Both the position numbers and the translations under genes were made by a program. From contig JBHHYO010000074.1 in assembly GCA_046757665.1 (NCBI GenBank), forward strand, positions 1 through 12,698: a DNA stretch of 12,698 nt, read 5' to 3'. This stretch comes from Nitrospinales bacterium (lineage in GTDB: Bacteria; Nitrospinota; Nitrospinia; Nitrospinales; JAJDAT01). Positions 1-12,698 of the stretch are shown here, piece by piece. Positions within the stretch are counted from its first letter, which is position 1, and every line of letters starts with the position of its first letter. The notes under the pieces are model-generated. The model was not told where the DNA came from and searched no databases. It worked only from the letters and a program-made list of their open reading frames with translations.

Positions 1-2012
1 GTTTTGATGCCGGTGGACAGCATGTCGATGCGGGTTTTGATCGGCATGGTCCAGGCATTAGTCACACCGGGAAAGTTAATGGCCGCATTCATCTCTTCAA
101 TCAGCTTCTTGATTGTCATTCCCGGGCGCCATTGTTCTTCCGGTTTGAGCATGATCGTGGTTTCCATCATGCTCAGGGGCGCCGGGTCGGTGGCGGTTTC
201 CGCCCGCCCGATCTTGCCGAACACGTGATGAACTTCCGGAAATTTTTTGATGATCTTGTCCGTCTGCTGAAGCAGTTCCTTGGCCTTGGTGATCGAGATG
301 CCGGGCAAGGTCGTCGGCATGTACAACAGGTCTCCCTCGTTGAGGGGAGGCATGAATTCCGAACCGATTTGTTTCAAGGGTATCATGCTCAGGGCAACCA
401 CGAAAATGGCGCCCAGGATCACAAGGGTTTTCATTTTTAAAGCCAGCCGAATGATAGGGTTGTAGATCAACCATAAAATCCAGTTGACGGGATTTTGCTT
501 TTCGGGAAGGATTCTGCCCCTGACGAAGTAGCCCATCATAACGGGAACAAGGGTCACCGCCAGAATGGCCGACGCCGCCATGGAGTAGGTTTTCGTAAAC
601 GCCAGAGGAGAGAACAAACGGCCCTCCTGGGCTTGCAGGGTCAAAACGGGCAAAAAGGATACGGTGATGATCAGCAGACTGAAAAAGATGGCCGGACCAA
701 CCGCCGCGGAAGCCTCGTAGATGATCTGCCAATGGTCCTTCTTGCCGCGGTCCTGCTCAAGATGCTTGTGCGCGCTTTCGATCATGACGATGGCGCCGAC
801 AATCATGGCGCCGATGGCGATGGCGATTCCGCCCAGGGACATGATGTTGGCGTTGAGCCCCTGGTAATACATGATGATGAACGCCATGAGAACGCCCATG
901 AGAACGGAGAAAATGGCGACCATCGCGGACCGCAAATGCAGGAGAAAGATGACGCAGATGGCCGCGACCATCAGGTTTTCCTCGATCAGTTTTCCTTTCA
1001 GGGTGTCGACCGCTCGCAGGATGAGGCTGGAACGGTCATAGACGGGGATGACCTCCACCCCTTCCGGAAGTCCGGCCTTCAACTCCGCCAGTTTTTGTTT
1101 GACGCCGTTGATGACTTTCAGGGCGTTTTCGCCGAAACGCATGATGACAATTCCACCCGCCACCTCTCCCTCGCCGTTAAGCTCGACCAGTCCGCGTCTC
1201 AACTCCGGCCCCAGTTGAACGTGCGCCACGTCGCGAATCAGGATGGGGGTTCCGCGGGCGTCCACCCCCACGGGAATCGTCTCGATGTCGCCGATATTTT
1301 TAATGTAGCCCAGTCCCCTGACCATGAACTCCATCTCGGACATCTCCAGAAGCCGCCCACCGACGTCGTTGTTGCTTCGCTTGATGGCCATGAAGATTTT
1401 ATGCAACGGGATGTTGTAGGCGATAAGCCGGTTGGGGTCCACCTCCACCTGGTATTGCTTGACGTAGCCGCCGATACTGGCAACTTCGGAGACACCGGAG
1501 ACGGTTTGCAGTTCATAGCGAAGATACCAGTCCTGGATGGAGCGCAATTCGGAGAGATCGTGTTTGCCGGTTCTGTCTACAATAGCGTATTCGAAAACCC
1601 ATCCGACTCCCGTGGCATCCGGCCCCAACGACGGGTTGACTTCCTTGGGCAGTCGTCCCGAAACAAAGTTCAAGTATTCCAGAACGCGGCTACGCGCCCA
1701 GTACATGTCCGTCCCGTCCTCGAATATGATGTAGACGAAGGAAAAGCCGAAGAAAGAATAACCGCGCACGACCTTGGCGAACGGCACCGACAACATGGCC
1801 GTGGTCAAGGGATAGGTGATCTGATCCTCAACGATTTGCGGCGCCTGCCCGGGGTATTTGGTGAAAATGATCACCTGCACGTCGCTGAGGTCGGGAATGG
1901 CGTCGAGCGGCATCCGTTGCAGGACGAAAATACCCCAGACAATGATGAAGCCGGTCCCCAGAAGAACAAGAAATCGATTTTTGAGAGATGCCGCAATGAT
2001 TTTTTTGAGCAT
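1..2012 (-). CDS. cusA: CusA/CzcA-family heavy-metal efflux RND permease, Cu(I)/Ag(I) type; N-terminal 670 codons, 3' end outside window
   Basis: Manually translated open frame from ATG at 2012: [16 protein letters not shown]...[37 protein letters not shown]...[11 protein letters not shown]...[13 protein letters not shown]...[22 protein letters not shown]...[11 protein letters not shown]...[17 protein letters not shown]. Frame is the same at both ends. Not in the ORF track because there is no stop codon in the window. Confidence 0.97.
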
Positions 2013-2017
2013 TGTTT

Positions 2018-2968
2018 TTAGTTAAGGGAACGATCTCGAATTCGAGAAAGATATTTTTGGGGTGATTGGTTAAACTCCGTGGCACAGGTTTGCGAACAAA
2101 AATAATAGATTCGATCCCGAAATTGCGCTTTCAAGGCGTGGCGGGTATCGTGCACCGGCATTCCACATACGGGATCATATGAAGAATTGCGATTGTCGTA
2201 TTGAATGAACGTTTGGAATGCTTTTTCAAAGGTGGGATCAAATTGAGTTCCCGCGGCCTGTGCTATGATTTCCAGAGCCCGTTGTTTGCTGAGTGCCTTT
2301 CGGTAGGCGCGGTCACAACTCATGGCATCATAGGCATCCACAAAACTTATTATTCTTGAGCCCAATGGAATCTCTTGAGCGTTAAGGCCGTCCGGGTACC
2401 CCGTACCATCGTATTTTTCATGATGATGACGGATGATTTTCACGATGTTTTCAAATCCCTTTAATGTTTTGAGGGCGTCGGCTCCATATACGGGATGTTT
2501 TTTAATCCAGTGAAATTCTTCTTCATTTAATTTGTCGGGTTTTTTTAAAATGGCGTCGGGTATGCCAATTTTCCCGATATCATGCAACTCCGCCGCCATG
2601 GAGATTTCTTCTATATCCTCCGAAGGCAATTGCAGATATTCGCTAAAACTTTGCGCTAAATCCCTAACACGCCTCGAATGTCCTTCCGTATAAGGGTCCT
2701 TTAGATCGATGAGGGAAACGAGCGCCAGTTTTATGCCCATCAGTGTTTCAATAGTATCCTGCTGAAAGCGCAGGATTTTTGAAACATCGCCTACCAGTAA
2801 ACCGCAAAAAATCATAACACTGACAAACATGCCCACCATGATTTCACTATGGTATTGCTCGTGGATTATACCTCCGACAAAAGAATCGATCAGAACAAGC
2901 AAGGCAACCATGCCTATTCCGATGATTTTCCACCCCATGCGTGTTTTTTTTAGGATCGAGGAGGCCAT
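2018..2968 (-). CDS. Membrane-anchored HD-GYP domain phosphodiesterase with C-terminal YHS/TRASH metal-binding domain
   Basis: Two N-terminal hydrophobic segments. HD-GYP motifs [55 protein letters not shown]-terminal DPVCGM...YYFCSQTC...F...PQKY (2051-2176). Alternative start ATG at 2938. Confidence 0.93.
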
Positions 2969-3047
2969 GATTTCCGTTATTTCAAAAGCTGTTCTCGGCT
3001 TTCCACTTTCGAGGACCGTTGCATAACCCGGGGCTTCGCCGCCGCGG

Positions 3048-3153
3048 TGTCATCGCGAGCCGCTACCCGCGGCGTGGCGATCCAGCCGGGCCACGCCCGG
3101 TGGGAAAGGTTCTTTCTGGATTGCTTCGTCGGCTGAGCCTTCTCGCAATGACA
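3048..3153. repeat. REP-like palindromic element resembling CGTC-tagged repeats (GTCATTGCGAG...CTCGCAATGAC type)
   Basis: Terminal inverted repeats TGTCATCGCGAG (3048-3059) and CTCGCAATGACA (3142-3153), 11/12 match. Inner arms GGCGTGGCGATCCAG (3071-3085) and CTGGATTGCTTCGTC (3116-3130). Internal hairpin CCGGGC-CAC-GCCCGG (3086-3100). Confidence 0.85.
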
Positions 3154-3178
3154 GTCAAACAAGTACACTTATACAAAG

Positions 3179-3194
3179 CTCCCACTTTGGGGAG
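3179..3194 (-). terminator. Short hairpin immediately after the cusB stop (weak terminator or processing-site candidate)
   Basis: Minus strand CTCCC-CAAAGT-GGGAG followed by CTTTGT. Stem is only 5 bp and the U tract is poor. Confidence 0.25.
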
Positions 3195-3199
3195 AATGT

Positions 3200-4954
3200 T
3201 TATTGTTTCATGCCTTCCATGTCCATGCCTTTCATGTCCATAGGCGCGGGCATTTTTTGTTTGCCCGTTTGCGGTAAAGCCTGGGATCCACCTGTTTTCC
3301 CTGTGTTTTTCGTGCTTTTTGGCTTGCTTGTTTTAAGCTTGGATTGTTGCATTTTGTTGAGAGCCTCGCGGAGGTTGCTTTCCGAGTCGATGAGGAAGTT
3401 GGAGGAGGTGACGACCTTTTCCCCGGCCTTAACTCCCTGGATCACCTGAACTTCATTATTCGCGTGACGGCCCAACACAACCTGCCGCGACTCAAATCCG
3501 CCGCTTTTATTCATGACGATCACGATATTTTTCTCTCCGGCATGGATAACCGCCACATCGGGAACGACAACGGTTTTCCGGGCGATGACTGACTTGAAAA
3601 TCAAATCGGCGTACATATCCGGTTTTAACTGCCAGTTTGGATTTCTAAACTCCGTTCTTACTTTGACGGTGCGGGTTTTCGGGTCCAAGACGGGGTCGAT
3701 AAAAGTAACCTTCCCCTTGAATTTCTTGCCCGGAAAATAGGAAAGTTGCATTTCCGTTTCCTGGCCCATTCGTATCCAGGGCAATTCATATTCATAAATC
3801 TCTCCCTGAACCCATATATTGGAAAGGTCGGCGATGGTATAAAGGCTCATTCCCGGTTTGATATACATTCCCTGCAACACGTGTTTCTTGATGACGAATC
3901 CGCGCACCGGCGAATGAATGTGCATGGTTTTTGTGATTTTCTGATTGCGAATCAACTCCTCGATCTGGTGCTCCGGAACATCAAACAACTCCAGTCGGCG
4001 GCGGGTGGACTCGAGAAGCGCCTTGGACCCCTGGGAAAGCTCGGTGAACGGATTGTCCTTAAGCGTCTGGTTGTACTTCATGGCGAGGAGCAGTTCTTCC
4101 TGTGTCGATACCAGTTCCGGGCTGTAAATTTCCGCCAGCAATTGGCCTTCCTCGACTTCCTGGCCCGTAAAATCGACATGCAGTTTCTCTACCCATCCCT
4201 CGTACTTGGTATGAACGTGGGTAACTTTTCTTTCGTCGTAAGTTAACGTTCCGATGGTCCGGATTTCCCGCTTGAGGGTTTTGACTTCTGCAATCTCCGT
4301 TTTGACTCCAATGTCTTGAACGATATTTGCCTGAATGCGGATACCGTCTCCGCCCCCCTCATCCTCGTAAACCGGGATCAAGTCCATCCCCATTGGGGAT
4401 TTCCCGGGTTTGTCGGAAATGTAACCGGCGGTCATCGGGGCTTTCCAATACTTGATTTTTCTTTGTTTTTTGGGAGGCGTTTTGTCCGGTTCGGCGTTCG
4501 CTTGCCCGGGTGGCTCTGGCGGCGGCAAGGGTTTTGGTTTTTGCGCTAATTGGGAGTCAATAACGTCCGTGATTTTCTGCGTTATGGGCCCGGATTTTTC
4601 GATAATCAATGAAGCAAATTTTTCCACATTCTTTGGGGTCTCTTGCAGGGAATCCGGGTTTGTGGAATAACCTAAAAGATAGACCAGGCCCATGGTCAGA
4701 AGGAATCCGGCAAACTTTAAAAACCTGGAAGATCGCCGAGGTCCCGCGGATTGGGATTTGGAATCGGCAGATTCCTTCATGGGAAAAATAATCTCTTCCT
4801 CGGAATCGGATTCGCCGGTATCGGACGGTCTCTCCTCGGAAAGCGGCCGTTTCAAGTTTTTGATTTCTTTCATATCGTCCTCACTTTTCCCCAAGGCGTA
4901 CTGCGCGGATTTTTCTCGAGGAGTTTTCGCAATCGTTTGTTTGAAACGTTTCAA
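3200..4954 (-). CDS. cusB: CusB-like periplasmic adaptor (membrane fusion protein) with long N-terminal extension and Met-rich C-terminal tail
   Basis: Metal-binding motif YWKAPM...KPGKSPMGMDLIPVY. MFP motifs GWVEKL, IYSPELVSTQEELL, IADLSNIWV, IDPVLDPKTRTVKVR, LKPDMYA, FLIDSESNLRE. Start uncertain: TTG at 4954 (TTGA overlap with the cusC stop) or ATG at 4873 preceded by GAGG. Confidence 0.95.
   Translation of the reverse strand: MKRFKQTIAKTPREKSAQYALGKSEDDMKEIKNLKRPLSEERPSDTGESDSEEEIIFPMKESADSKSQSAGPRRSSRFLKFAGFLLTMGLVYLLGYSTNPDSLQETPKNVEKFASLIIEKSGPITQKITDVIDSQLAQKPKPLPPPEPPGQANAEPDKTPPKKQRKIKYWKAPMTAGYISDKPGKSPMGMDLIPVYEDEGGGDGIRIQANIVQDIGVKTEIAEVKTLKREIRTIGTLTYDERKVTHVHTKYEGWVEKLHVDFTGQEVEEGQLLAEIYSPELVSTQEELLLAMKYNQTLKDNPFTELSQGSKALLESTRRRLELFDVPEHQIEELIRNQKITKTMHIHSPVRGFVIKKHVLQGMYIKPGMSLYTIADLSNIWVQGEIYEYELPWIRMGQETEMQLSYFPGKKFKGKVTFIDPVLDPKTRTVKVRTEFRNPNWQLKPDMYADLIFKSVIARKTVVVPDVAVIHAGEKNIVIVMNKSGGFESRQVVLGRHANNEVQVIQGVKAGEKVVTSSNFLIDSESNLREALNKMQQSKLKTSKPKSTKNTGKTGGSQALPQTGKQKMPAPMDMKGMDMEGMKQ
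3209..3241 (-). repeat. 15-bp tandem duplication encoding the Met-rich tail MDMKG-MDMEG-M
   Basis: CATGCCTTCCATGTC (3209-3223) and CATGCCTTTCATGTC (3224-3238), one mismatch, followed by CAT. Confidence 0.8.
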
Positions 4955-6231
4955 AATAATCTTTTACCTACGACATGTTCCAGCCGGGCAAGATTTTTTT
5001 CATAGTCAGTCAACTCCTTGTGGTACCTGATCTGCCATTTGAAAAGCGTGATCTCGTTGTCCAGCAGAGTTAAAAAATCCACCTTGTCCACGCCGTATCC
5101 GGCCAGGGCGGATTCCAGGGACTGCCGGGCCTGCGGAATAATTCCAGTCTTGATCAGCTTGAGCAGTTTGGTTCCCTTAACCTCCTCATCCAGGCTTTCC
5201 TTGATTTTCAGGAAAATCTCGTTTCGGGTTTTGTTGTAAGTTTCCTGAGCCATAATCACTTTACGATTCTCTTCAAGCACCTTGCGGCGTTGCTTGCTTT
5301 TCTGCCACAAGGGAATATTGATACCGACAAAAGCAGAGACGAAATCCGGATGGTCCAAGCCCCGCCTCAAGTTGCTTTGCCGTTGCCCGTATCGAAACCC
5401 CACGTTGAAGTCGGGGAAAAAATCCTTTTCGGCTAATCTTCCGGAAACTTTGAACCGCTCGATCACGGAACGGATTCCCTTCAATACCGGACGGCTTCCC
5501 TCGGCGGTTCTTTGCAGATTTTTGAGCGTATAATTGAACGGCGTTTTCGTGATTCCATGAGATATGGACAAAGGCGCTTGCGGCATACGGTTCATCAAGG
5601 TATTGAGTCGGGCCTTTTCGACATCTCTCCTTTTATCCAGCCGGACCAATTCGTCCATGATCTTGGACAACTCCACTTGAGCCTTTATGACATCCTGTTG
5701 AATTCCCTTGCCAACGGAATACTTGGTTTCCGCGATGGTGATGAATTGTTTCAGCAGGGATTTATTTTCCTTGGTGATTTCGATGGACGCCAAAATAAAA
5801 CAAAGCTCGTAAAATGAGACCTTGACCTCCTTGATGAGACTCAGCTTGAGGTCCTCGTAGCTTTCCTCGACAATTTTTACGTTTTTCTCGGCAATCTCCG
5901 TCCGCAGTCCCAGCTTGCCGGGGAAAGGGAATTTCTGTGACAACGTGATTTGTTTCTGCGTCATCGCCTGCGAGGAAAATGAAAAACTGTCGGTCGGCAA
6001 GTTCTTCAACTCAAACTTCAGCATGGGGTCGTCCAGGGAGCCTGCCTGAGAGGGAATCTCCTTGTAAGCCTTGATTTTTTCCCTGGCTTCCTTCAGTTCG
6101 GGATTATTTTCCAGCGCTTCGGTTATAAACCGGTTTAAATTTTCCTTGAATTTACGGGTTTGCTGACCCCAGACCAGGCCGGTATGGGCACAAAAAACCA
6201 GCAAAACAAGAATCGATACCCATCGTTTCAT
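4951..6231 (-). CDS. TolC-family outer membrane efflux protein (CusC role)
   Basis: Signal peptide, ALENNPEL, LSQKFPFPGKL, YSVGKGIQQDVIKAQVE, VGINIPLW, GYGVDKVDFLTLLD. GAGG upstream of ATG. Located directly upstream of the MFP and RND genes. Confidence 0.94.
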   Translation of the reverse strand: MKRWVSILVLLVFCAHTGLVWGQQTRKFKENLNRFITEALENNPELKEAREKIKAYKEIPSQAGSLDDPMLKFELKNLPTDSFSFSSQAMTQKQITLSQKFPFPGKLGLRTEIAEKNVKIVEESYEDLKLSLIKEVKVSFYELCFILASIEITKENKSLLKQFITIAETKYSVGKGIQQDVIKAQVELSKIMDELVRLDKRRDVEKARLNTLMNRMPQAPLSISHGITKTPFNYTLKNLQRTAEGSRPVLKGIRSVIERFKVSGRLAEKDFFPDFNVGFRYGQRQSNLRRGLDHPDFVSAFVGINIPLWQKSKQRRKVLEENRKVIMAQETYNKTRNEIFLKIKESLDEEVKGTKLLKLIKTGIIPQARQSLESALAGYGVDKVDFLTLLDNEITLFKWQIRYHKELTDYEKNLARLEHVVGKRLF

Positions 6232-6333
6232 AGTCGCCTCTGGTTAATTTGATTTTGGGAACCGGGAATCCTCGCGGACAAACCGGCTCAAAAAGGCAAA
6301 CCACGCCTCGTGTTAAATCTTAAACAGCCAGGG

Positions 6334-6347
6334 TGTAACGTGTTACA
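6334..6347. promoter_or_regulatory. 14-bp dyad TGTAAC-GT-GTTACA in the spacer between the leader ORF and the TolC gene (possible operator)
   Basis: Perfect 6-bp arms, flanked by near-direct repeats AACAGCCAGGG (6323-6333) and AACAGCCGGG (6351-6360). Confidence 0.35.
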
Positions 6348-6367
6348 GGGAACAGCCGGGATGGGTG

Positions 6368-6637
6368 TTATTGTCTGGGAGGATGGTAGACGGGATTTAA
6401 AAAGATGAAATCGAATTTCTCAAAAGCCACCGGAACGTTGCACACAGGAGGGAAAACAAGGTCCGGGTCCGAGAAATCAGCCGCGGCAAAAACCACGCAG
6501 GAATGGCAACTGACCTTCATCGGACAATCCGTGGGAGACATGTCGTGCGTCATGGCGATTGAACTGTTGACCATGAAAAGGCAAAACAGCCCAACCAATA
6601 TGGCCGCCGCAAGAGGATGTTTTCGCAACATTCGCAT
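6368..6637 (-). CDS. Small exported Cys-motif protein or leader peptide of the CutF/CruR (DUF2946)/CzcI-like class
   Basis: N-terminal signal-like hydrophobic segment, Met/His patch MTHDM, CxxC (CHSC, residues 44-47) and C-terminal YHPPRQ. First gene of a heavy-metal RND operon. Confidence 0.8.
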   Translation of the reverse strand: MRMLRKHPLAAAILVGLFCLFMVNSSIAMTHDMSPTDCPMKVSCHSCVVFAAADFSDPDLVFPPVCNVPVAFEKFDFIFLNPVYHPPRQ

Positions 6638-6673
6638 AACAATATGATTTGTTGTAGATTATGCTTTTCTTTT

Positions 6674-6701
6674 AAGCTAATCCCTTTTTTTCAAATGTCA
6701 A
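6674..6701 (-). promoter_or_regulatory. Sigma70-type promoter for the leader/cus operon
   Basis: Minus strand TTGACA (6701-6696), 16-bp spacer, TAGCTT (6679-6674), about 36 bp upstream of the leader ATG. Confidence 0.65.
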
Positions 6702-6813
6702 GTTTTTTTGTCCGCGCCGGCGGGCCGGTTTTTCCTCCAGCCGTCCACCGTTTGGAGTATGATAGGTGCCTTGGCCCGGAGCCTCATGAAAAATTTCGCC
6801 GGAAAGATCAACG

Positions 6814-7602
6814 ATGGAACTGATTGAAGCAAAAGACGCCGCCTTGTCTTACCTGAAACCGGCCACGCGGGAAGTTTTGAAGTATTTTCGCTCGGACGTG
6901 ACCGTCGATGAAAAATCCGACGGTAGCCCGGTGACCATCGCCGACCGCAACGCCGAGGAAATCCTGCGAAAACGCATCAGCCGCGACTTCCCCGGTCACG
7001 GGATCATCGGCGAGGAATTCGGCAACGAGTCCGCCACCGCGGAGTGGGTATGGACCATAGACCCGATCGACGGAACGCTGTCATTCATTCACGACCTGCC
7101 TTTTTTCTCCATGTTGCTGGCCCTGTTGCATCGCGGCCGGCCGGTTATGGGAGTGCTTTCCCTGCCCGCCCTCGGCGAAACGGCCTGGGCCGTGAAGGGC
7201 CGGGGAACCCATTGCAACCGCGGGCGCGTCCGGGTCTCCCAATGCAACAGCTTGAAAAACGCCGTGGCGGCCACCGCCGACCGGTATTGCTTCAAGGAAA
7301 AAAAGTGCCTGCACCTGTATGACCGGATTTACCAACACACCGCCCTGGCGCGCACGTATCCCGACGCCTTTGGCCACTGGATGGCCATCCGCGGGGCCGT
7401 AGATATCATGGTGGACCCGTGGGCCTGTATCTGGGACTTCGCGCCGTGTAAAATCCTGGCGGAGGAAGCGGGAGGCCGTTTCGCCAATTTCACCGGCAAC
7501 AAGGGATCGATCACCGAGGGAACCGCCATCGTCGGCAATGCCGCGCTGGTGCGGCAAGTCAGAACGCTATACCTGAAAGGAAAGAACACCGCGCGCCGTT
7601 GA
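6814..7602 (+). CDS. hisN: Inositol monophosphatase family protein, probably histidinol-phosphate phosphatase (HisN-like)
   Basis: Motifs KSDGSPVTIADRNAE, IIGEEFG, WTIDPIDGTLSF, IWDFAP, EEAGG. Family is clear; substrate specificity is inferred. Confidence 0.8.
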   Translation: MELIEAKDAALSYLKPATREVLKYFRSDVTVDEKSDGSPVTIADRNAEEILRKRISRDFPGHGIIGEEFGNESATAEWVWTIDPIDGTLSFIHDLPFFSMLLALLHRGRPVMGVLSLPALGETAWAVKGRGTHCNRGRVRVSQCNSLKNAVAATADRYCFKEKKCLHLYDRIYQHTALARTYPDAFGHWMAIRGAVDIMVDPWACIWDFAPCKILAEEAGGRFANFTGNKGSITEGTAIVGNAALVRQVRTLYLKGKNTARR

Positions 7603-7607
7603 GGCGG

Positions 7608-7988
7608 TCAAAGTTTTTGCCGGCCGGCATAACCCGCGTCCAGATCGTGCCAGAAACGAACTTCCTCCTCGGGAATTTTCCAACAAAGAAAAACCTCCCG
7701 GCCGTTCAGGATCGCGGGAAAATCCACCAGACCCTCGGCGATTCCCTTGATAATGCAACCCTCATCCGACAAGTCGTTCATAGCCCGGTTGAGTTGCAGG
7801 GCGACCTGCAAATAAGCGGAGCCCTGCTCACTGCCTCCATTGAAGCGGGCATTTTCCCGCGCCTTCTCGACGTCGGGAAACTGGTTGGCCAACCGGGCCG
7901 CCAGGCTCTGAATACGGGGAACATCCTTGAGCAACCTGGGCACCAGGGAATTGGCTTCATTCACGGTAAAATGTTTTTTGAACGCCAT
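7608..7988 (-). CDS. DUF2203 family protein
   Basis: FTVNEANSLVP...IKGIAEGLVDFP...EVFLCWK..E....WH...AGYAGR matches the recalled DUF2203 pattern. ATG at 7988 preferred over the upstream start at 7997. Confidence 0.85.
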   Translation of the reverse strand: MAFKKHFTVNEANSLVPRLLKDVPRIQSLAARLANQFPDVEKARENARFNGGSEQGSAYLQVALQLNRAMNDLSDEGCIIKGIAEGLVDFPAILNGREVFLCWKIPEEEVRFWHDLDAGYAGRQKL

Positions 7989-8037
7989 AAGGCACAATGG
8001 GGGAAAAAGGTTGACCGGGCGAGCTTTTTCAATCCCG

Positions 8038-8066
8038 ATTATAATTTATCACAGCGGACCTGTCCA
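8038..8066 (-). promoter_or_regulatory. Sigma70-type promoter for the DUF2203 gene
   Basis: Minus strand TGGACA (8066-8061), 17-bp spacer, TATAAT (8043-8038). Confidence 0.65.
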
Positions 8067-8215
8067 ATTGATTAGCGGAAATTTTTCCGGCATCAATGAG
8101 CCTGTTTTATCATAAATTTTATCGGCGCCGGGAAGGGACGGGAAAACCGCCAACGGCCCGCGGGATAAGAAAATTCTGAAAATGCACCCTAAGCGGAAAT
8201 TCGGGCTTTTTTTAA

Positions 8216-8244
8216 TTGACAAACCGTATGTAAGGATATAGATT
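8216..8244 (+). promoter_or_regulatory. Sigma70-type promoter for the exported hypothetical protein
   Basis: TTGACA (8216-8221), 17-bp spacer, TAGATT (8239-8244), with a T-rich tract upstream. Confidence 0.7.
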
Positions 8245-8361
8245 TTGAACTATAAATTAAGAATACCCTGCGGCGGAACAGCGCGAATAAAACGCATCAA
8301 CCAGCCGATCGCTTAAATTTTCCTGAGTTTAACCATGTCTCAAAAAAACAAGGGGGGACAA

Positions 8362-8832
8362 ATGAAAAAACCATTAATCCTAGCCTCAGTTGTTGCATTT
8401 GTTGCCGCAATGTCCTTGGGCGTCGCGGTTTCTTTTGCGGACGAGTTGTTGCCGGGCGCTTATGCCCAGCAAGACCAGAGCGTCATGGGTGTCGGCAAAA
8501 CCATGGTTGAAATGGGTGCCGCCGACCGTGCCCTGACCAACGCCGTGAACCTGGCTTCCGGAGCCGGCAGGTCCAGAAACACTTCGTTTGGTGTCAACGT
8601 GGACTATCAGTTCGGGTCATCGCAGTCAGACCAGTCCTGGAAAGCCGCCAGAACCGTCGAGGAAGCGCAAGTGCGCGGACTGGTCCCCGGCGATTGCCAG
8701 GGCGACAACTCCACGGACGCTTACAGGAAGCAAATGAATCAAAGCCGGGATGGATACGTGCAAGAGAAGCTGATCCCCAACAACATCTGCGGGGACCACC
8801 ACCCGACCATAAAAATCGGGGCGACCAACTAA
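8362..8832 (+). CDS. Exported hypothetical protein
   Basis: Sec-type signal MKKPLILASVVAFVAAMSLGVAVSFA and ribosome-binding site AAGGGGG before the ATG at 8362 (ORF track starts at 8335). Has its own promoter and a downstream hairpin. No family recognised. Confidence 0.85.
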   Translation: MKKPLILASVVAFVAAMSLGVAVSFADELLPGAYAQQDQSVMGVGKTMVEMGAADRALTNAVNLASGAGRSRNTSFGVNVDYQFGSSQSDQSWKAARTVEEAQVRGLVPGDCQGDNSTDAYRKQMNQSRDGYVQEKLIPNNICGDHHPTIKIGATN

Positions 8833-8856
8833 GCTCATATTGGCGCATTTATCCCT

Positions 8857-8889
8857 TCCCGGACGAAAAGCAGTACCGCCCGTCCGGGA
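8857..8889 (+). terminator. Stem-loop downstream of the exported hypothetical protein
   Basis: TCCCGGACG (8857-8865) and CGTCCGGGA (8881-8889) form a perfect 9-bp stem with a 15-nt loop. No U tract, so it is not a classical intrinsic terminator. Confidence 0.4.
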
Positions 8890-8922
8890 CAATATCGATC
8901 AACATGGTAAAAAGCCGGTAGA

Positions 8923-9396
8923 ATGAAAATTCTATCGGCTTTTTCTTTACGCCCCTTCTCCCCAATCCCGCACTCCATGGTCCGGCGGATTCTCCTGTTA
9001 CTCTGCATCCTGCATCTCATGCAACCTGTCCCCTCCCTGCCTGCCGAAAAGATTTCCTTGAAACAGTATCCCACTCTCAGTATCCCGGTGACGAATCCGG
9101 TGGACCTTAGCCGACTGCCCCGGGACAAAATGTTCCAGGTGAAGGACGAACAATTCATCCTGCAATTTTTTTTCAACGAACGGGACATATTCGGATTTAT
9201 CATGAAACGCGACAAAAAACTCCCGTTATACCTCCGGTGGTGTTTTTTCCGTTCCTGCGAGGAAAGCCCGTTCGATTACACGGTCCGCATCGCGGCGCCC
9301 TACCAGCCGCCTTTTGTTAAGGGATTTTTTGTGGTCAACTTCCCGCCCGGAATTCAATACGACTTTCAAGGATTGTTGTTCTCCTCACCTCGTTAA
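8923..9396 (+). CDS. Hypothetical protein, probably exported (likely start ATG 8977)
   Basis: Fills the gap between neighbours. From M19, MVRRILLLLCILHLMQPVPSLPA resembles a signal peptide. Aromatic-rich body with WCFFRSCEES. No family recognised. Confidence 0.7.
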   Translation: MKILSAFSLRPFSPIPHSMVRRILLLLCILHLMQPVPSLPAEKISLKQYPTLSIPVTNPVDLSRLPRDKMFQVKDEQFILQFFFNERDIFGFIMKRDKKLPLYLRWCFFRSCEESPFDYTVRIAAPYQPPFVKGFFVVNFPPGIQYDFQGLLFSSPR

Positions 9397-9440
9397 AAAT
9401 GACGCAAGGAGAAGCCTTTGTCCCGTTTCCGGCTGGTCCT

Positions 9441-9449
9441 TGGTATAAT
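9441..9449 (+). promoter_or_regulatory. Extended -10 promoter for the DUF1566 gene
   Basis: TG-G-TATAAT at 9441-9449, about 45 bp upstream of the ATG at 9495. No well-spaced -35 seen. Confidence 0.55.
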
Positions 9450-9494
9450 TTGTTCAAGCGAATAAATTCCAAAACCACCATCCATGAGGTTGTT

Positions 9495-9929
9495 ATGACC
9501 ACAAACAGATTTGTCGATAACGGCAACGACACCATAACCGACTCGGACACGGGACTGACCTGGCTCAAACGGGATTCCCGGCAGATAACAAAAAAATGGC
9601 TCCACCTGGAAAAAGCCCGGGAGTTCGCGGAAGAATTAAACGCCGCCCGGTTCGGCGGTTTTGACGACTGGAGGGTGCCGAAACTGGAAGACGTTAAAAC
9701 CATTTTCGACAAAAAGTTCACCCTCCTGACCCACGGAAACGACGAGATTCATATTCCGCCGGTTTTCGAGGCCGGTTGCACCGACAGCACATGGACCGAC
9801 GAGGTGAATGGAGAACGGGCCATGGTGTACAGTCTCATCAAGGGAAGGTCGAGCTGGATCAACAAACTGGGGGAAGGCCCCTTTGCCGTTCGCCTGGTGC
9901 GGGGCACGGCAAAAGACAAGGGGATTTAA
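9495..9929 (+). CDS. DUF1566 (Lcl C-terminal-like) domain protein
   Basis: RFVDNGNDTITDSDTGLTW, LNAARFGGFDDWRVP, W(T) and VRLVR are typical DUF1566 motifs. GAGGT precedes the ATG at 9495. Stop overlaps the convergent symporter stop (TTAA, 9926-9929). Confidence 0.88.
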   Translation: MTTNRFVDNGNDTITDSDTGLTWLKRDSRQITKKWLHLEKAREFAEELNAARFGGFDDWRVPKLEDVKTIFDKKFTLLTHGNDEIHIPPVFEAGCTDSTWTDEVNGERAMVYSLIKGRSSWINKLGEGPFAVRLVRGTAKDKGI

Positions 9930-11152
9930 TGCTCCTCCACAAACTTTTCTTCCAGCCGGTCGATGATCGCCGCGCCGATGGAATCGCCCCAGACGTTGAC
10001 GGTTGTCCGGCACCGGTCCAGAAACCAGTCGATAGCCAGAAGCATCCCGATGCCTTCCAGCGGCAGTCCAACCGACTGGAGAACCATCACCAGGGTCACC
10101 AACCCGGCTTCGGGGATTCCGGCGGCGCCCACCGCGGCCAGCGTCGCGGTTAAAAAAATGACGGTCTGTTCCGCGAAGCCCAGGTGAATCTGAAACACCT
10201 GGGCAATGAACAAAGCCGCAACCGCCTCGTACATGGCGGTGCCGTCCATATTCACCGTGGCGCCCAGGGGGAGGACAAACAAAGACGCTTTCCGTGACAC
10301 CTTGTTGTTTTGCTCGGCGCACTCGATGGTGACCGGAAGCGTGGCCGAACTGCTGGCCGTGGAGAAAGCCGTGATCAAAGCCTCCCCGGCGTTTTTCAGG
10401 TAAACCACCGGGTTTCTGCGCGTAAAAACGACCAGCAAAACCGGCAACACAACGACCGCATGAACCAGGAGCCCGCTGACTACGGTCAAAACGTATTTGC
10501 CGATTTTCACCAGCTCCGCAAGAAACGCATCCCCGCCGCCGGTCGCGCCCAGCTTCGAGGCAATCAATCCGAAAATCCCAAGAGGCGCCAAATACATCAC
10601 CAGATGAACGATTTTCATCATGGCGGCATTGACGACATCGAAAAAATCAATGACCACCTTGCCCTTGGTCCCCAAAGTTGTCAGGACCCCTCCAAACAAC
10701 AGGGAAAAAACAATCAACGGAAGAATCTCCATTTCCACCATGGAACGGACAAGGTTCGGCGAGACAAACGTCTGCAAAATCGTGGTCAGGCCCACGGACT
10801 CTTTTCCGGAAACCTTTTCCGGCAGGTCCAGGGCTCCGGCTTCCATTCCCACTCCCGGCTGAATCAGGTTGACCAATAACAACCCGATCACTACCGAAAC
10901 GGCCGTGGTGAGCATGTAATAACCCAAAGTGATGACACCGGTTTTCCCCAGCTTGCGGATATCGCCCAACCCCGCGATGCCCACGATCATGGAAGAGACA
11001 ATCAGCGGCACCACGAGCATTTTCAAGGCATCGAGGAAAAGTTCTCCCATCCAGGCAACCGCCAGCATGGACTTCCCAAAGGTCCAGCCGCACACCCCGC
11101 CGCTCAGGATTCCGATGACAGTCAGGAAGAGGAGCCGGTTTTTCTTTTTCAT
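9926..11152 (-). CDS. Dicarboxylate/amino acid:cation symporter (DAACS/SDF family, GltP/GltPh-like)
   Basis: LKMLVVPLI, AFSTASSSATLP, VLPLGATVNMDGTA, VGAAGIPEAG, DWFLDRCRTTVNVWGD. The NMDGT motif is of the glutamate/aspartate transporter type. Confidence 0.96.
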   Translation of the reverse strand: MKKKNRLLFLTVIGILSGGVCGWTFGKSMLAVAWMGELFLDALKMLVVPLIVSSMIVGIAGLGDIRKLGKTGVITLGYYMLTTAVSVVIGLLLVNLIQPGVGMEAGALDLPEKVSGKESVGLTTILQTFVSPNLVRSMVEMEILPLIVFSLLFGGVLTTLGTKGKVVIDFFDVVNAAMMKIVHLVMYLAPLGIFGLIASKLGATGGGDAFLAELVKIGKYVLTVVSGLLVHAVVVLPVLLVVFTRRNPVVYLKNAGEALITAFSTASSSATLPVTIECAEQNNKVSRKASLFVLPLGATVNMDGTAMYEAVAALFIAQVFQIHLGFAEQTVIFLTATLAAVGAAGIPEAGLVTLVMVLQSVGLPLEGIGMLLAIDWFLDRCRTTVNVWGDSIGAAIIDRLEEKFVEEH

Positions 11153-11276
11153 CGATCACCGCCCGGTCGTCGTTTTCGCAATAAGGGATGTTCGGCCCAA
11201 GGGAAATGGAGTATATTGTTATCCGCTGATCCCAGCGGTGTTAAATTGAAGTCCGACATCAAACTTGGAGGCCCCC

Positions 11277-12566
11277 ATGGCAGAAACGGTTACAGTTACC
11301 CATCAAGGGAAAACGTTTGAATTGCCCATCGTAACAGGCCGCATGGGCGAACGGGGAATCGATATTTCCAACTTGCTTGCCAAAACCGGGTTGATCGCTT
11401 TTGATCCGGGGTATGTCAATACCGGGTCGTGCAAAAGCGCGATAACTTATCTCGACGGCAATAAAGGCATTCTCCTGTACCGGGGAATCCCCATCGAGCA
11501 ACTTGCCGAAAAAAGCACGTTTATCGAAACCGCCTACCTTCTTATTTATGGAAAACTGCCCACGCAATCCGAACTGGACGAGTTTCATTACCACATCGTT
11601 CATCATTCGATGGTTCACGAATCCATCAAAAACCTTTACGACGGATTCCCCAACAATCCGCACCCCATGGCCGTTTGTAGCGCGGTGGTGGGCTCCCTGG
11701 CCACTTTTTACGCGGGGGAATTGGGCGTCCGCAACGAGCGCCAGGTGGAGATCGCCATTCACCGGCTTTTAGCCAAACTGCCCACCATTGCCGCCTACAG
11801 TTACAAAAAATCCATTGGCCAGCCCCTGCCCTACCCCAACAACGCCATGAGCTATACGCAAAATTTTCTCAACATGATGTTCTCCACGCCCTGCGAGGAT
11901 TACCAAGTGGACCCGCTGGCCGCCAAGACCCTGGATGTCCTGCTCATCCTGCACGCCGACCACGAGCAAAACTGTTCCACCAGCGCCGTGCGCCTGGTAG
12001 GCAGTTCCATGTGCAATCTGTTTGCCTCGGTTTCAGCCGGAATTTATGCCTTGTGGGGACCTCTGCACGGCGGGGCCAACCAGGCGGTCATCGAAATGCT
12101 TCAACATATCAAAACTGACGGCGGAAATGTCAATAAATATATCGAAAAGGCAAAAGACCACAAAGATCCCTTCCGGCTCATGGGATTCGGACACCGCGTT
12201 TACAAAAATTTTGACCCCCGGTGCAAGATCATCAAAAAACTGGCCCATGAAGTTATGGAAAAATTGCAGATCAAGGAACCGCTATTCGATATCGCTCTCA
12301 GTCTGGAGGAAGTCGCCCTCAAGGAATCCTATTTCATCGAAAAAAAGCTGTACCCCAATGTCGATTTTTATTCCGGCCTGATTTACAAGGCATTGAATAT
12401 TCCCGTCAACATGTTTCCCGTCATGTTTGCCATGGGACGGTTGCCCGGCTGGATTGCCCAATGGAAAGAACTGCAGGAAGACAAAAATTTCAAAATCGGC
12501 CGGCCACGGCAAATTTATTCGGGCAACCCGCAAACCGATTACGTTCCCATTGAACAAAGACAATAG
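11277..12566 (+). CDS. gltA: Citrate synthase
   Basis: DPGYVNTGSCKSAITYLDG, LHADHEQNCSTS, WGPLHGGANQ, GFGHRVYK, YPNVDFYSG, RPRQIY. GGAGG precedes the ATG at 11277. Confidence 0.98.
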   Translation: MAETVTVTHQGKTFELPIVTGRMGERGIDISNLLAKTGLIAFDPGYVNTGSCKSAITYLDGNKGILLYRGIPIEQLAEKSTFIETAYLLIYGKLPTQSELDEFHYHIVHHSMVHESIKNLYDGFPNNPHPMAVCSAVVGSLATFYAGELGVRNERQVEIAIHRLLAKLPTIAAYSYKKSIGQPLPYPNNAMSYTQNFLNMMFSTPCEDYQVDPLAAKTLDVLLILHADHEQNCSTSAVRLVGSSMCNLFASVSAGIYALWGPLHGGANQAVIEMLQHIKTDGGNVNKYIEKAKDHKDPFRLMGFGHRVYKNFDPRCKIIKKLAHEVMEKLQIKEPLFDIALSLEEVALKESYFIEKKLYPNVDFYSGLIYKALNIPVNMFPVMFAMGRLPGWIAQWKELQEDKNFKIGRPRQIYSGNPQTDYVPIEQRQ

Positions 12567-12698
12567 AATGCCGCAAGGAAAAGCGTTGGGGACGGTGAGA
12601 AGTGAAAGGAATGATGCGCTTGCTTCGACTATCTGTTAAAGGCCAACGGCGCGGCAAAAGCTCAACGGCGCGCCGGAAAAATCACAGCGGCTCGATCG

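Follow-up and report, generated by a model that had tools for sequence, protein, structure and literature searches.

We analysed a 12,698-nucleotide stretch of DNA (the window; Nitrospinales bacterium, assembly GCA_046757665.1, contig JBHHYO010000074.1, positions 1 to 12,698) that carries the first 670 codons of a cusA gene, encoding the resistance-nodulation-division (RND) permease of a Cu(I)/Ag(I) efflux system, in which the aspartate at the centre of transmembrane helix 4 (TM4; D405 of E. coli CusA) is replaced by valine. RND transporters are, to our knowledge, all taken to couple energy through the TM4 aspartate. The window gene is a genuine, inherited variant of a CusA permease and the only CusA-type gene in its genome, and the V405 change is inherited, being neither a sequencing error nor the mark of a plain pseudogene. 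We tentatively favour the reading, which comes close to an even chance, that the gene encodes a working CusCBA pump whose coupling would no longer run via the TM4 aspartate. In the titles, abstracts and passages of the literature on CusA, the heavy-metal efflux RND (HME-RND) proton relay and Nitrospina/Nitromaritima copper, we found no description of a natural CusA lacking D405.

The window is contig C74 of a 2.97 Mb genome of 160 contigs that is 97.6% complete. The cusA open reading frame (ORF) starts at position 2012 on the minus strand and runs off the contig at base 3 (3..2012). Its last 265 codons were recovered in matching orientation, free of stops, at the end of another contig (G000:C68:14499..13705, minus strand), and about 104 codons, corresponding to E. 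coli residues 679-782, are unassembled between the two pieces. Of the roughly 1040 codons expected for the uninterrupted frame of an RND permease, a protein type with 12 transmembrane helices and two large periplasmic loops, 935 are present on two contig ends without a stop. The recovered downstream part, from the stretch that an earlier note on this DNA had proposed to retrieve, keeps the equivalent of E939. The first 670 residues alone score 831.1 bits against TIGR00914 (CusA/CzcA heavy-metal efflux RND; cutoff 701.45), and HMMER aligns the window protein end to end with E. coli CusA chains (E = 3e-272). Both the three-methionine site and the transmembrane methionine pairs that define the Cu/Ag, methionine-relay subtype were found: the Met triad M573/M623/M672 is canonical, and M391, M403, M410, M486, M501 and M1009 are all Met across the N-terminal and C68 parts (M755 falls in the unassembled gap). 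The periplasmic relay residues R83, E567, D617, E625, R669 and K678 are the same as in E. coli, and K482, E412, E939 and T987 are kept; the earlier note's view that the periplasmic domain and the Met triad are canonical stands in the alignment.

The substitutions lie in the membrane domain and were read as that note had given them, all on the minus strand. Codon 405 (798..800) is GTC, valine in place of the proton-relay aspartate of TM4; codon 413 (774..776) is AGC, serine for asparagine; codon 371 (900..902) is CTC, leucine for an invariant proline of TM3; and codon 437 (702..704) is GCG, alanine for the glutamate at the start of TM5. Each is a single base from the consensus codon (GAC, AAC, CCC and GAG, respectively), as also noted before. 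The HMMER alignment and the translation of K-12 cusA place the four codons opposite D405, N413, P371 and E445 of E. coli CusA, whose sequence contains the motifs quoted for it in that note. The number 437 is the window protein's own for E. coli 445, the TM4-TM5 loop being 8 residues shorter in the window protein. The TM4 glutamate at codon 412 (777..779, minus strand, GAA) is kept, and codon 457 (E. coli 465; 642..644, minus strand, TTG) encodes leucine in place of phenylalanine. The P371 and E445 changes are private to the window.

How unusual these residues are was judged from the best 120 matches minus the window's own copy, that is, 119 proteins 76-86% identical to it. Position 405 is D in 117 of the 119, V in one (P0003) and A in one (P0010). 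All 119 have P at 371; 118 have N at 413 and one has S, and 118 have E at 437 and one has Q. Five of the eight window-specific deviations at columns conserved at 97% or more fall within residues 371-457, a region picked after the fact; the clustering in TM3-TM5 described earlier is real. The proton-relay triad defined in E. coli (D405/E939/K984) reads V405, E939 and I984 in the window protein. The last of these does not belong to the finding: among 115 aligned rows of Nitrospinota-type CusA the K984 equivalent is Ile in 106, Lys in 6, Met in 2 and Val in 1, and we rejected the change to Ile as part of it since Ile is the norm of the subfamily. Of the two downstream residues that the earlier note had wished to see, E939 is thus kept and the state of K984 is ordinary. 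Because of this prevalence of Ile, the triad is, as judged from the alignment, not general even among pumps that keep D405.

An artefact, whether from errors in sequencing or assembly or from a chimeric contig, is extremely improbable, although cusA is split at a contig end and many foreign contigs with an Asp codon are drawn to the TM4 region. Independently assembled Logan contigs from two samples reproduce window positions 27-831 and 807-2100 with no differences, at word depths of about 18 and 10, and exact contigs from the two samples cover all four codons, in agreement with the earlier judgement that no sequencing error is involved. Both runs are samples of one hydrothermal vent metagenome study and are possibly the source samples; no RNA data set was listed among those that contain the stretch. 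The other letters seen at positions 799 and 775 come from short, loose-ended pieces of the RND genes of other organisms, and an independent single-cell genome, that encoding P0003, has the same V405, S413 and L457. Over the first 70 bases of the window the depth is many-fold higher and several organisms contribute, so the contig most likely ends there because the assembly broke in a conserved motif; such depths sum over many organisms and were not taken as copy number. The most conserved RND motifs (window 1-70 and 771-910) are exactly where both contig C74 and the Logan contigs break off and where depth contributed by many organisms accumulates, and RND genes in metagenome bins are prone to splitting at these motifs.

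The V405 clade that had been proposed as a check exists and is small. P0003, called "cation transporter" by its source, is a full-length protein of 1044 residues from Candidatus Nitromaritima sp. SCGC AAA799-C22, a single-cell genome obtained, according to its published description, in the Red Sea at the metal-rich boundary between brine and seawater in Atlantis II Deep. It is 86% identical to the window protein (79% over the C68 piece, which fits the lower conservation of the C-terminal region). Besides V405 and S413, the two share F457L and the alteration of a conserved Asn where TM8 ends on the cytoplasmic side, two changes that the earlier note does not list, and P0003 keeps P371 and E445. 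The window protein and P0003 are sisters with an SH-aLRT (Shimodaira-Hasegawa-like approximate likelihood ratio test) support of 90 when the trait columns are dropped, and of 96 in a wider tree with column 405 left in. D405V, N413S and F465L, as numbered in E. coli, arose in the ancestor that the two genes have in common. V405 is therefore older than their 14% amino-acid divergence. Only 15 of the 96 differences between them fall in the 427 of 670 columns conserved at 90% or more, that is, 16% against a neutral expectation of about 64%. Because the differences avoid conserved columns, purifying selection has, on this comparison, clearly acted after V405 arose, and the very recent decay that had been offered as an alternative is not supported. 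General decay of the window gene was likewise rejected, its count of private deviations at columns conserved at 95% or more (8, against 4 in P0003) lying within the range of 0-11 seen in a leave-one-out comparison of 33 representatives.

Species genomes (185,579) and JGI metagenomes were scanned with a degenerate pattern for Gly, Ala or Val at codon 405, which returned 13 stretches from each. CusA-type genes made up 6 of the 13 genome and 4 of the 13 metagenome stretches; the other 7 and 9 were discarded as not CusA-type, since tblastn matched none of them to the query at E <= 1e-5. Ala405 is encoded in the Nitrospinaceae metagenome-assembled genome (MAG) that encodes P0010 (L048), in a Woeseia MAG and two metagenome relatives (L050, L057, L062) and in two Robiginitomaculum MAGs (L046, L051, L052), and Gly405 in a metagenome contig (L053). 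Val405 was found in a MAG labelled Klebsiella (L043) and in a frameshifted metagenome copy (L064). In the Klebsiella-labelled sequence (L043/L070), about 93 extra codons are inserted in frame behind residue 248, within an open frame of 1578 codons, reflecting either an unusual architecture or a mis-binned contig. In a tree of 44 rows the D/non-D state at position 405 needs at least four changes, the independent carriers being the Woeseia-like group (L050, L057, L062), Robiginitomaculum with L053, P0010, and the clade of the window.

The ratio of nonsynonymous to synonymous substitution rates (dN/dS) is 0.028 for L046-L051 at a synonymous divergence (dS) of 0.48, 0.071 for L050-L057 (dS 0.70), 0.066 for L050-L062 (dS 1.18) and 0.088 for L057-L062 (dS 0.96), both members of each pair having Ala405. 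Within the Woeseia-like trio the ratio is 0.04-0.06 in the membrane segments and 0.03-0.04 in TM4, TM10 and TM11 taken together. By this measure the Ala405 pairs are under strong purifying selection at unsaturated dS. No second CusA-type gene was found in the Woeseia and Robiginitomaculum MAGs; the genome of P0010 has a paralogue that keeps D405 and shares 59% identity with the window protein. It is also possible, if with somewhat less than an even chance, that CusA-type pumps can work without the TM4 aspartate: at least four natural lineages would have put Val, Ala or Gly at 405 while strong purifying selection kept their membrane core, which would imply a single-carboxylate (E939) mechanism or coupling to something other than protons. 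Either would be undescribed for the CusA family in the parts of the literature on which we draw (PMC8092243, PMC3637150, PMC8277102, PMC5029188).

As for mechanism, the window protein would still assemble and work as a tripartite copper/silver exporter, with its ion coupling moved away from the TM4 aspartate and the buried carboxylate of E939 in TM10 as, most likely, the single protonatable site. In E. coli, according to PMC8092243, the proposed part of D405 is to hand on the proton and shift TM4, which carries three of the transmembrane methionines; the pKa computed for E939 is near 7, and the residue at position 984 hydrogen-bonds D405. In a subfamily without the "proton sweeper" K984 the relay would therefore be reduced to the D405-E939 carboxyl pair, and because K984 is already absent, an arrangement with E939 only becomes more plausible. 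The simplest account of the data is that rare lineages made this switch and that E939 alone can carry the coupling, perhaps less efficiently, so that coupling is probably weaker or altered. E939, K482 and E412 are kept in all D405-less sequences that cover them, and T987 in all except L053. Furthermore, P983A is common to two independent Ala405 lineages (L048/L013, which is P0010, and L050, L057, L062), and P983, a TM11 residue adjacent to position 984, is P in 96% of the D405 background rows; the change may be a compensating one. Y736 is changed in two lineages. The Ala405 clades offer the strongest support for the suggested E939-only coupling. The window gene itself gives a mixed picture: selection has clearly acted since V405, yet the membrane domain has changed unusually fast and two more invariant residues have been lost.

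Several observations weigh against a working pump, and most of them make up the case for the main alternative, possible but less likely than the working pump: that D405V broke proton coupling and left a de-energised, transport-dead pump which persists by tolerance or through a selected residual periplasmic function while the membrane module of the window gene drifts. According to PMC8092243, E. coli CusA stops transporting metal when D405, E939 or K984 is changed by point mutation. Across the family D405 is nearly invariant: among 144 representatives of 50%-identity clusters with TM4 covered, 143 have D and the remaining one is garbled, and D is also found in 28 of 30 CusA-type loci of the phylum; its loss is therefore rare and presumably costly. 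The V405 metagenome copy L064 has a frameshift and a stop, so some D405-less copies do decay. When changes were polarised by 8 outgroups over 935 aligned columns, with approximate domain boundaries, the membrane domain including the cytoplasmic loops showed 36 window-specific against 8 P0003-specific changes (4.5-fold; binomial p = 2.5e-5), whereas the periplasmic domain showed 13 against 12 (binomial p = 1.0; Fisher p = 0.013 for the interaction of lineage and domain). The radical membrane changes of the window are E340G, F346N, P371L, E437A, I514W, K518N and W522R, and many others lie in TM2, TM3, TM7 and the cytoplasmic loops. P371L and E445A hit membrane positions that are otherwise invariant, and both are absent from P0003 and from the Ala405 clades. 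In a per-partition fit the window has the highest membrane-to-periplasm ratio of terminal branch lengths among 24 sequences (2.73 against 1.35 tree-wide), followed by the Ala405 protein P0010 (2.27). The dS is saturated between the window gene and seven DNA relatives (L012, L013, L014, L016, L007, L022 and L028; proportion of synonymous differences 0.67-0.89), and these ratios are uninformative on recent constraint. The sister P0003, however, has the same V405 with a ratio of 0.67 and few deviations, the differences between the two avoid conserved columns, the membrane core of the Ala405 clades evolves at a dN/dS of 0.03-0.06, and no D405-less lineage has given up the buried E939. Control pairs in which both members have D405 also reach a membrane asymmetry of up to 2.5-fold (e.g. 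40 against 16 for P0043 and P0024), and the excess of the window differs from these controls in size, being larger, and not in kind. The window cusA has intact operon partners and is the sole gene of CusA type in an organism detected in the metagenome of a hydrothermal vent. The membrane-specific acceleration fits an altered or lost energy module, in line with the de-energised or differently energised subunit of the earlier note, and it fits either further adaptation or the relaxation of a dead motor; under the working-pump reading the lineage of the window would have remodelled its membrane domain further, P371L and E445A included.

That the protein does something other than pumping is unlikely, be it binding copper in the periplasm as a scaffold or plug of CusB/CusC, sensing, serving as a passive conduit or joining mixed trimers with an energised paralogue. 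Such a role would agree with a periplasmic domain that evolves at the normal rate while the membrane domain changes, and with a signalling-type gene, encoding HD-GYP and YHS domains, inside the operon. The transmembrane Met pairs and E939 are kept, though, and a mere scaffold would not need them. The partner subunit considered in the earlier note has no candidate, as no second CusA-type gene was found in the genome at its 97.6% completeness, the next matches being CzcA-like and 36-37% identical. Its sensor and passive conduit fare no better: the operon is complete, in the order cusC-cusB-(HD-GYP/YHS)-cusA, with nothing pointing to signalling, and the HD-GYP/YHS gene also stands upstream of cusA in D405 relatives and so is not tied to the loss of D405.

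The genes for the fusion protein and the outer membrane factor adjoin cusA on the minus strand, as in a tripartite CusCBA system. A cusC-type outer membrane factor gene (4951..6231; OEP domain in two stretches) is followed by a cusB-type membrane fusion protein gene (3200..4954; HlyD_D23 and HMBD domains) and, between cusB and cusA, by a gene for a membrane-anchored protein with an HD-GYP-type (HD_5) and a YHS domain (2018..2968). The latter protein has 316 residues with N-terminal membrane segments and the YHS domain at its C-terminus, and its stop lies 5 bases ahead of the cusA start. In 9 other loci, among them two that represent one and the same gene, a full-length homologue (49-53% identity) likewise stands upstream of cusA; as the carriers include both D405 and A405 cusA genes, the HD-GYP/YHS gene was rejected as a correlate of D405 loss. 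The operon may thereby include its own cyclic-di-GMP phosphodiesterase linked to copper. No cusF was recognised in the operon. Just upstream of cusC an ORF of 89 residues (6368-6637, minus strand) with a signal-peptide-like start, a Cys/His/Met-rich stretch and no Pfam match may encode a small periplasmic metal-binding protein that replaces CusF. The remainder of the window (6814-12566) holds housekeeping-type genes, namely those for an inositol monophosphatase family protein, an Lcl_C-domain protein, a sodium:dicarboxylate symporter and citrate synthase, together with three ORFs without a Pfam match. Among 120 Nitrospinota genomes a match to the CusA-type gene at E <= 1e-200 was found in 45; the gene of P0003 did not occur in this set. 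The closest DNA relatives of the window cusA sit in another family, and four of five other genomes of the same family are without the gene. This patchy presence and the placement of the closest relatives suggest horizontal movement of cusA within the phylum.

The D405-less pumps that appear to be under selection, in the clades of the window, the Woeseia-like group and Robiginitomaculum, would offer a natural test of how far the proton relay depends on the TM4 aspartate. They would show whether E939 alone can carry the coupling and whether P983A compensates. If these pumps are dead, they would instead indicate that the periplasmic half of a pump can stay under selection after the motor is lost. 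Either way the label "CusA" is no guarantee of a canonical pump, which is a warning for annotation.

Compared with known systems, the window protein is homologous over all of its 670 available residues to CusA of the E. coli Cu(I)/Ag(I) efflux system CusCFBA (PDB 3K07, 3NE5 and 7KF5, among others), with which it shares the Met triad, the charged periplasmic relay residues, the three transmembrane Met pairs, K482, E412, E939 and T987, as well as operon neighbours that encode a membrane fusion protein and an outer membrane factor. It differs in having Val for D405, Ser for N413, Leu for P371, Ala for E445 and Ile for K984, and its operon differs in the lack of a recognised cusF and in the HD-GYP/YHS gene between cusB and cusA. 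The engineered D405 mutants of E. coli have, like the window protein, an uncharged residue at the TM4 aspartate, and 4dnt_A, which reads Ala at 405, is the top-scoring solved chain for the window protein. Those mutants are reported to be unable to transport, whereas the window variant is natural and inherited, is accompanied by other changes and stands in a protein without K984. P0003, the closest homologue, has V405, S413, L457 and the Asn change at the end of TM8 in common with the window protein and retains P371 and E445. CzcA/ZneA-type HME-RND pumps for divalent cations have the same superfamily fold (E = 4e-109 for ZneA) and, unlike the window protein, keep the central TM4 aspartate and have no Met triad; the two CzcA-like paralogues in the window's own genome have D at the aligned TM4 position. 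According to a table in PMC3637150, E939 and K984 are not conserved in such pumps and the TM4 aspartate is.

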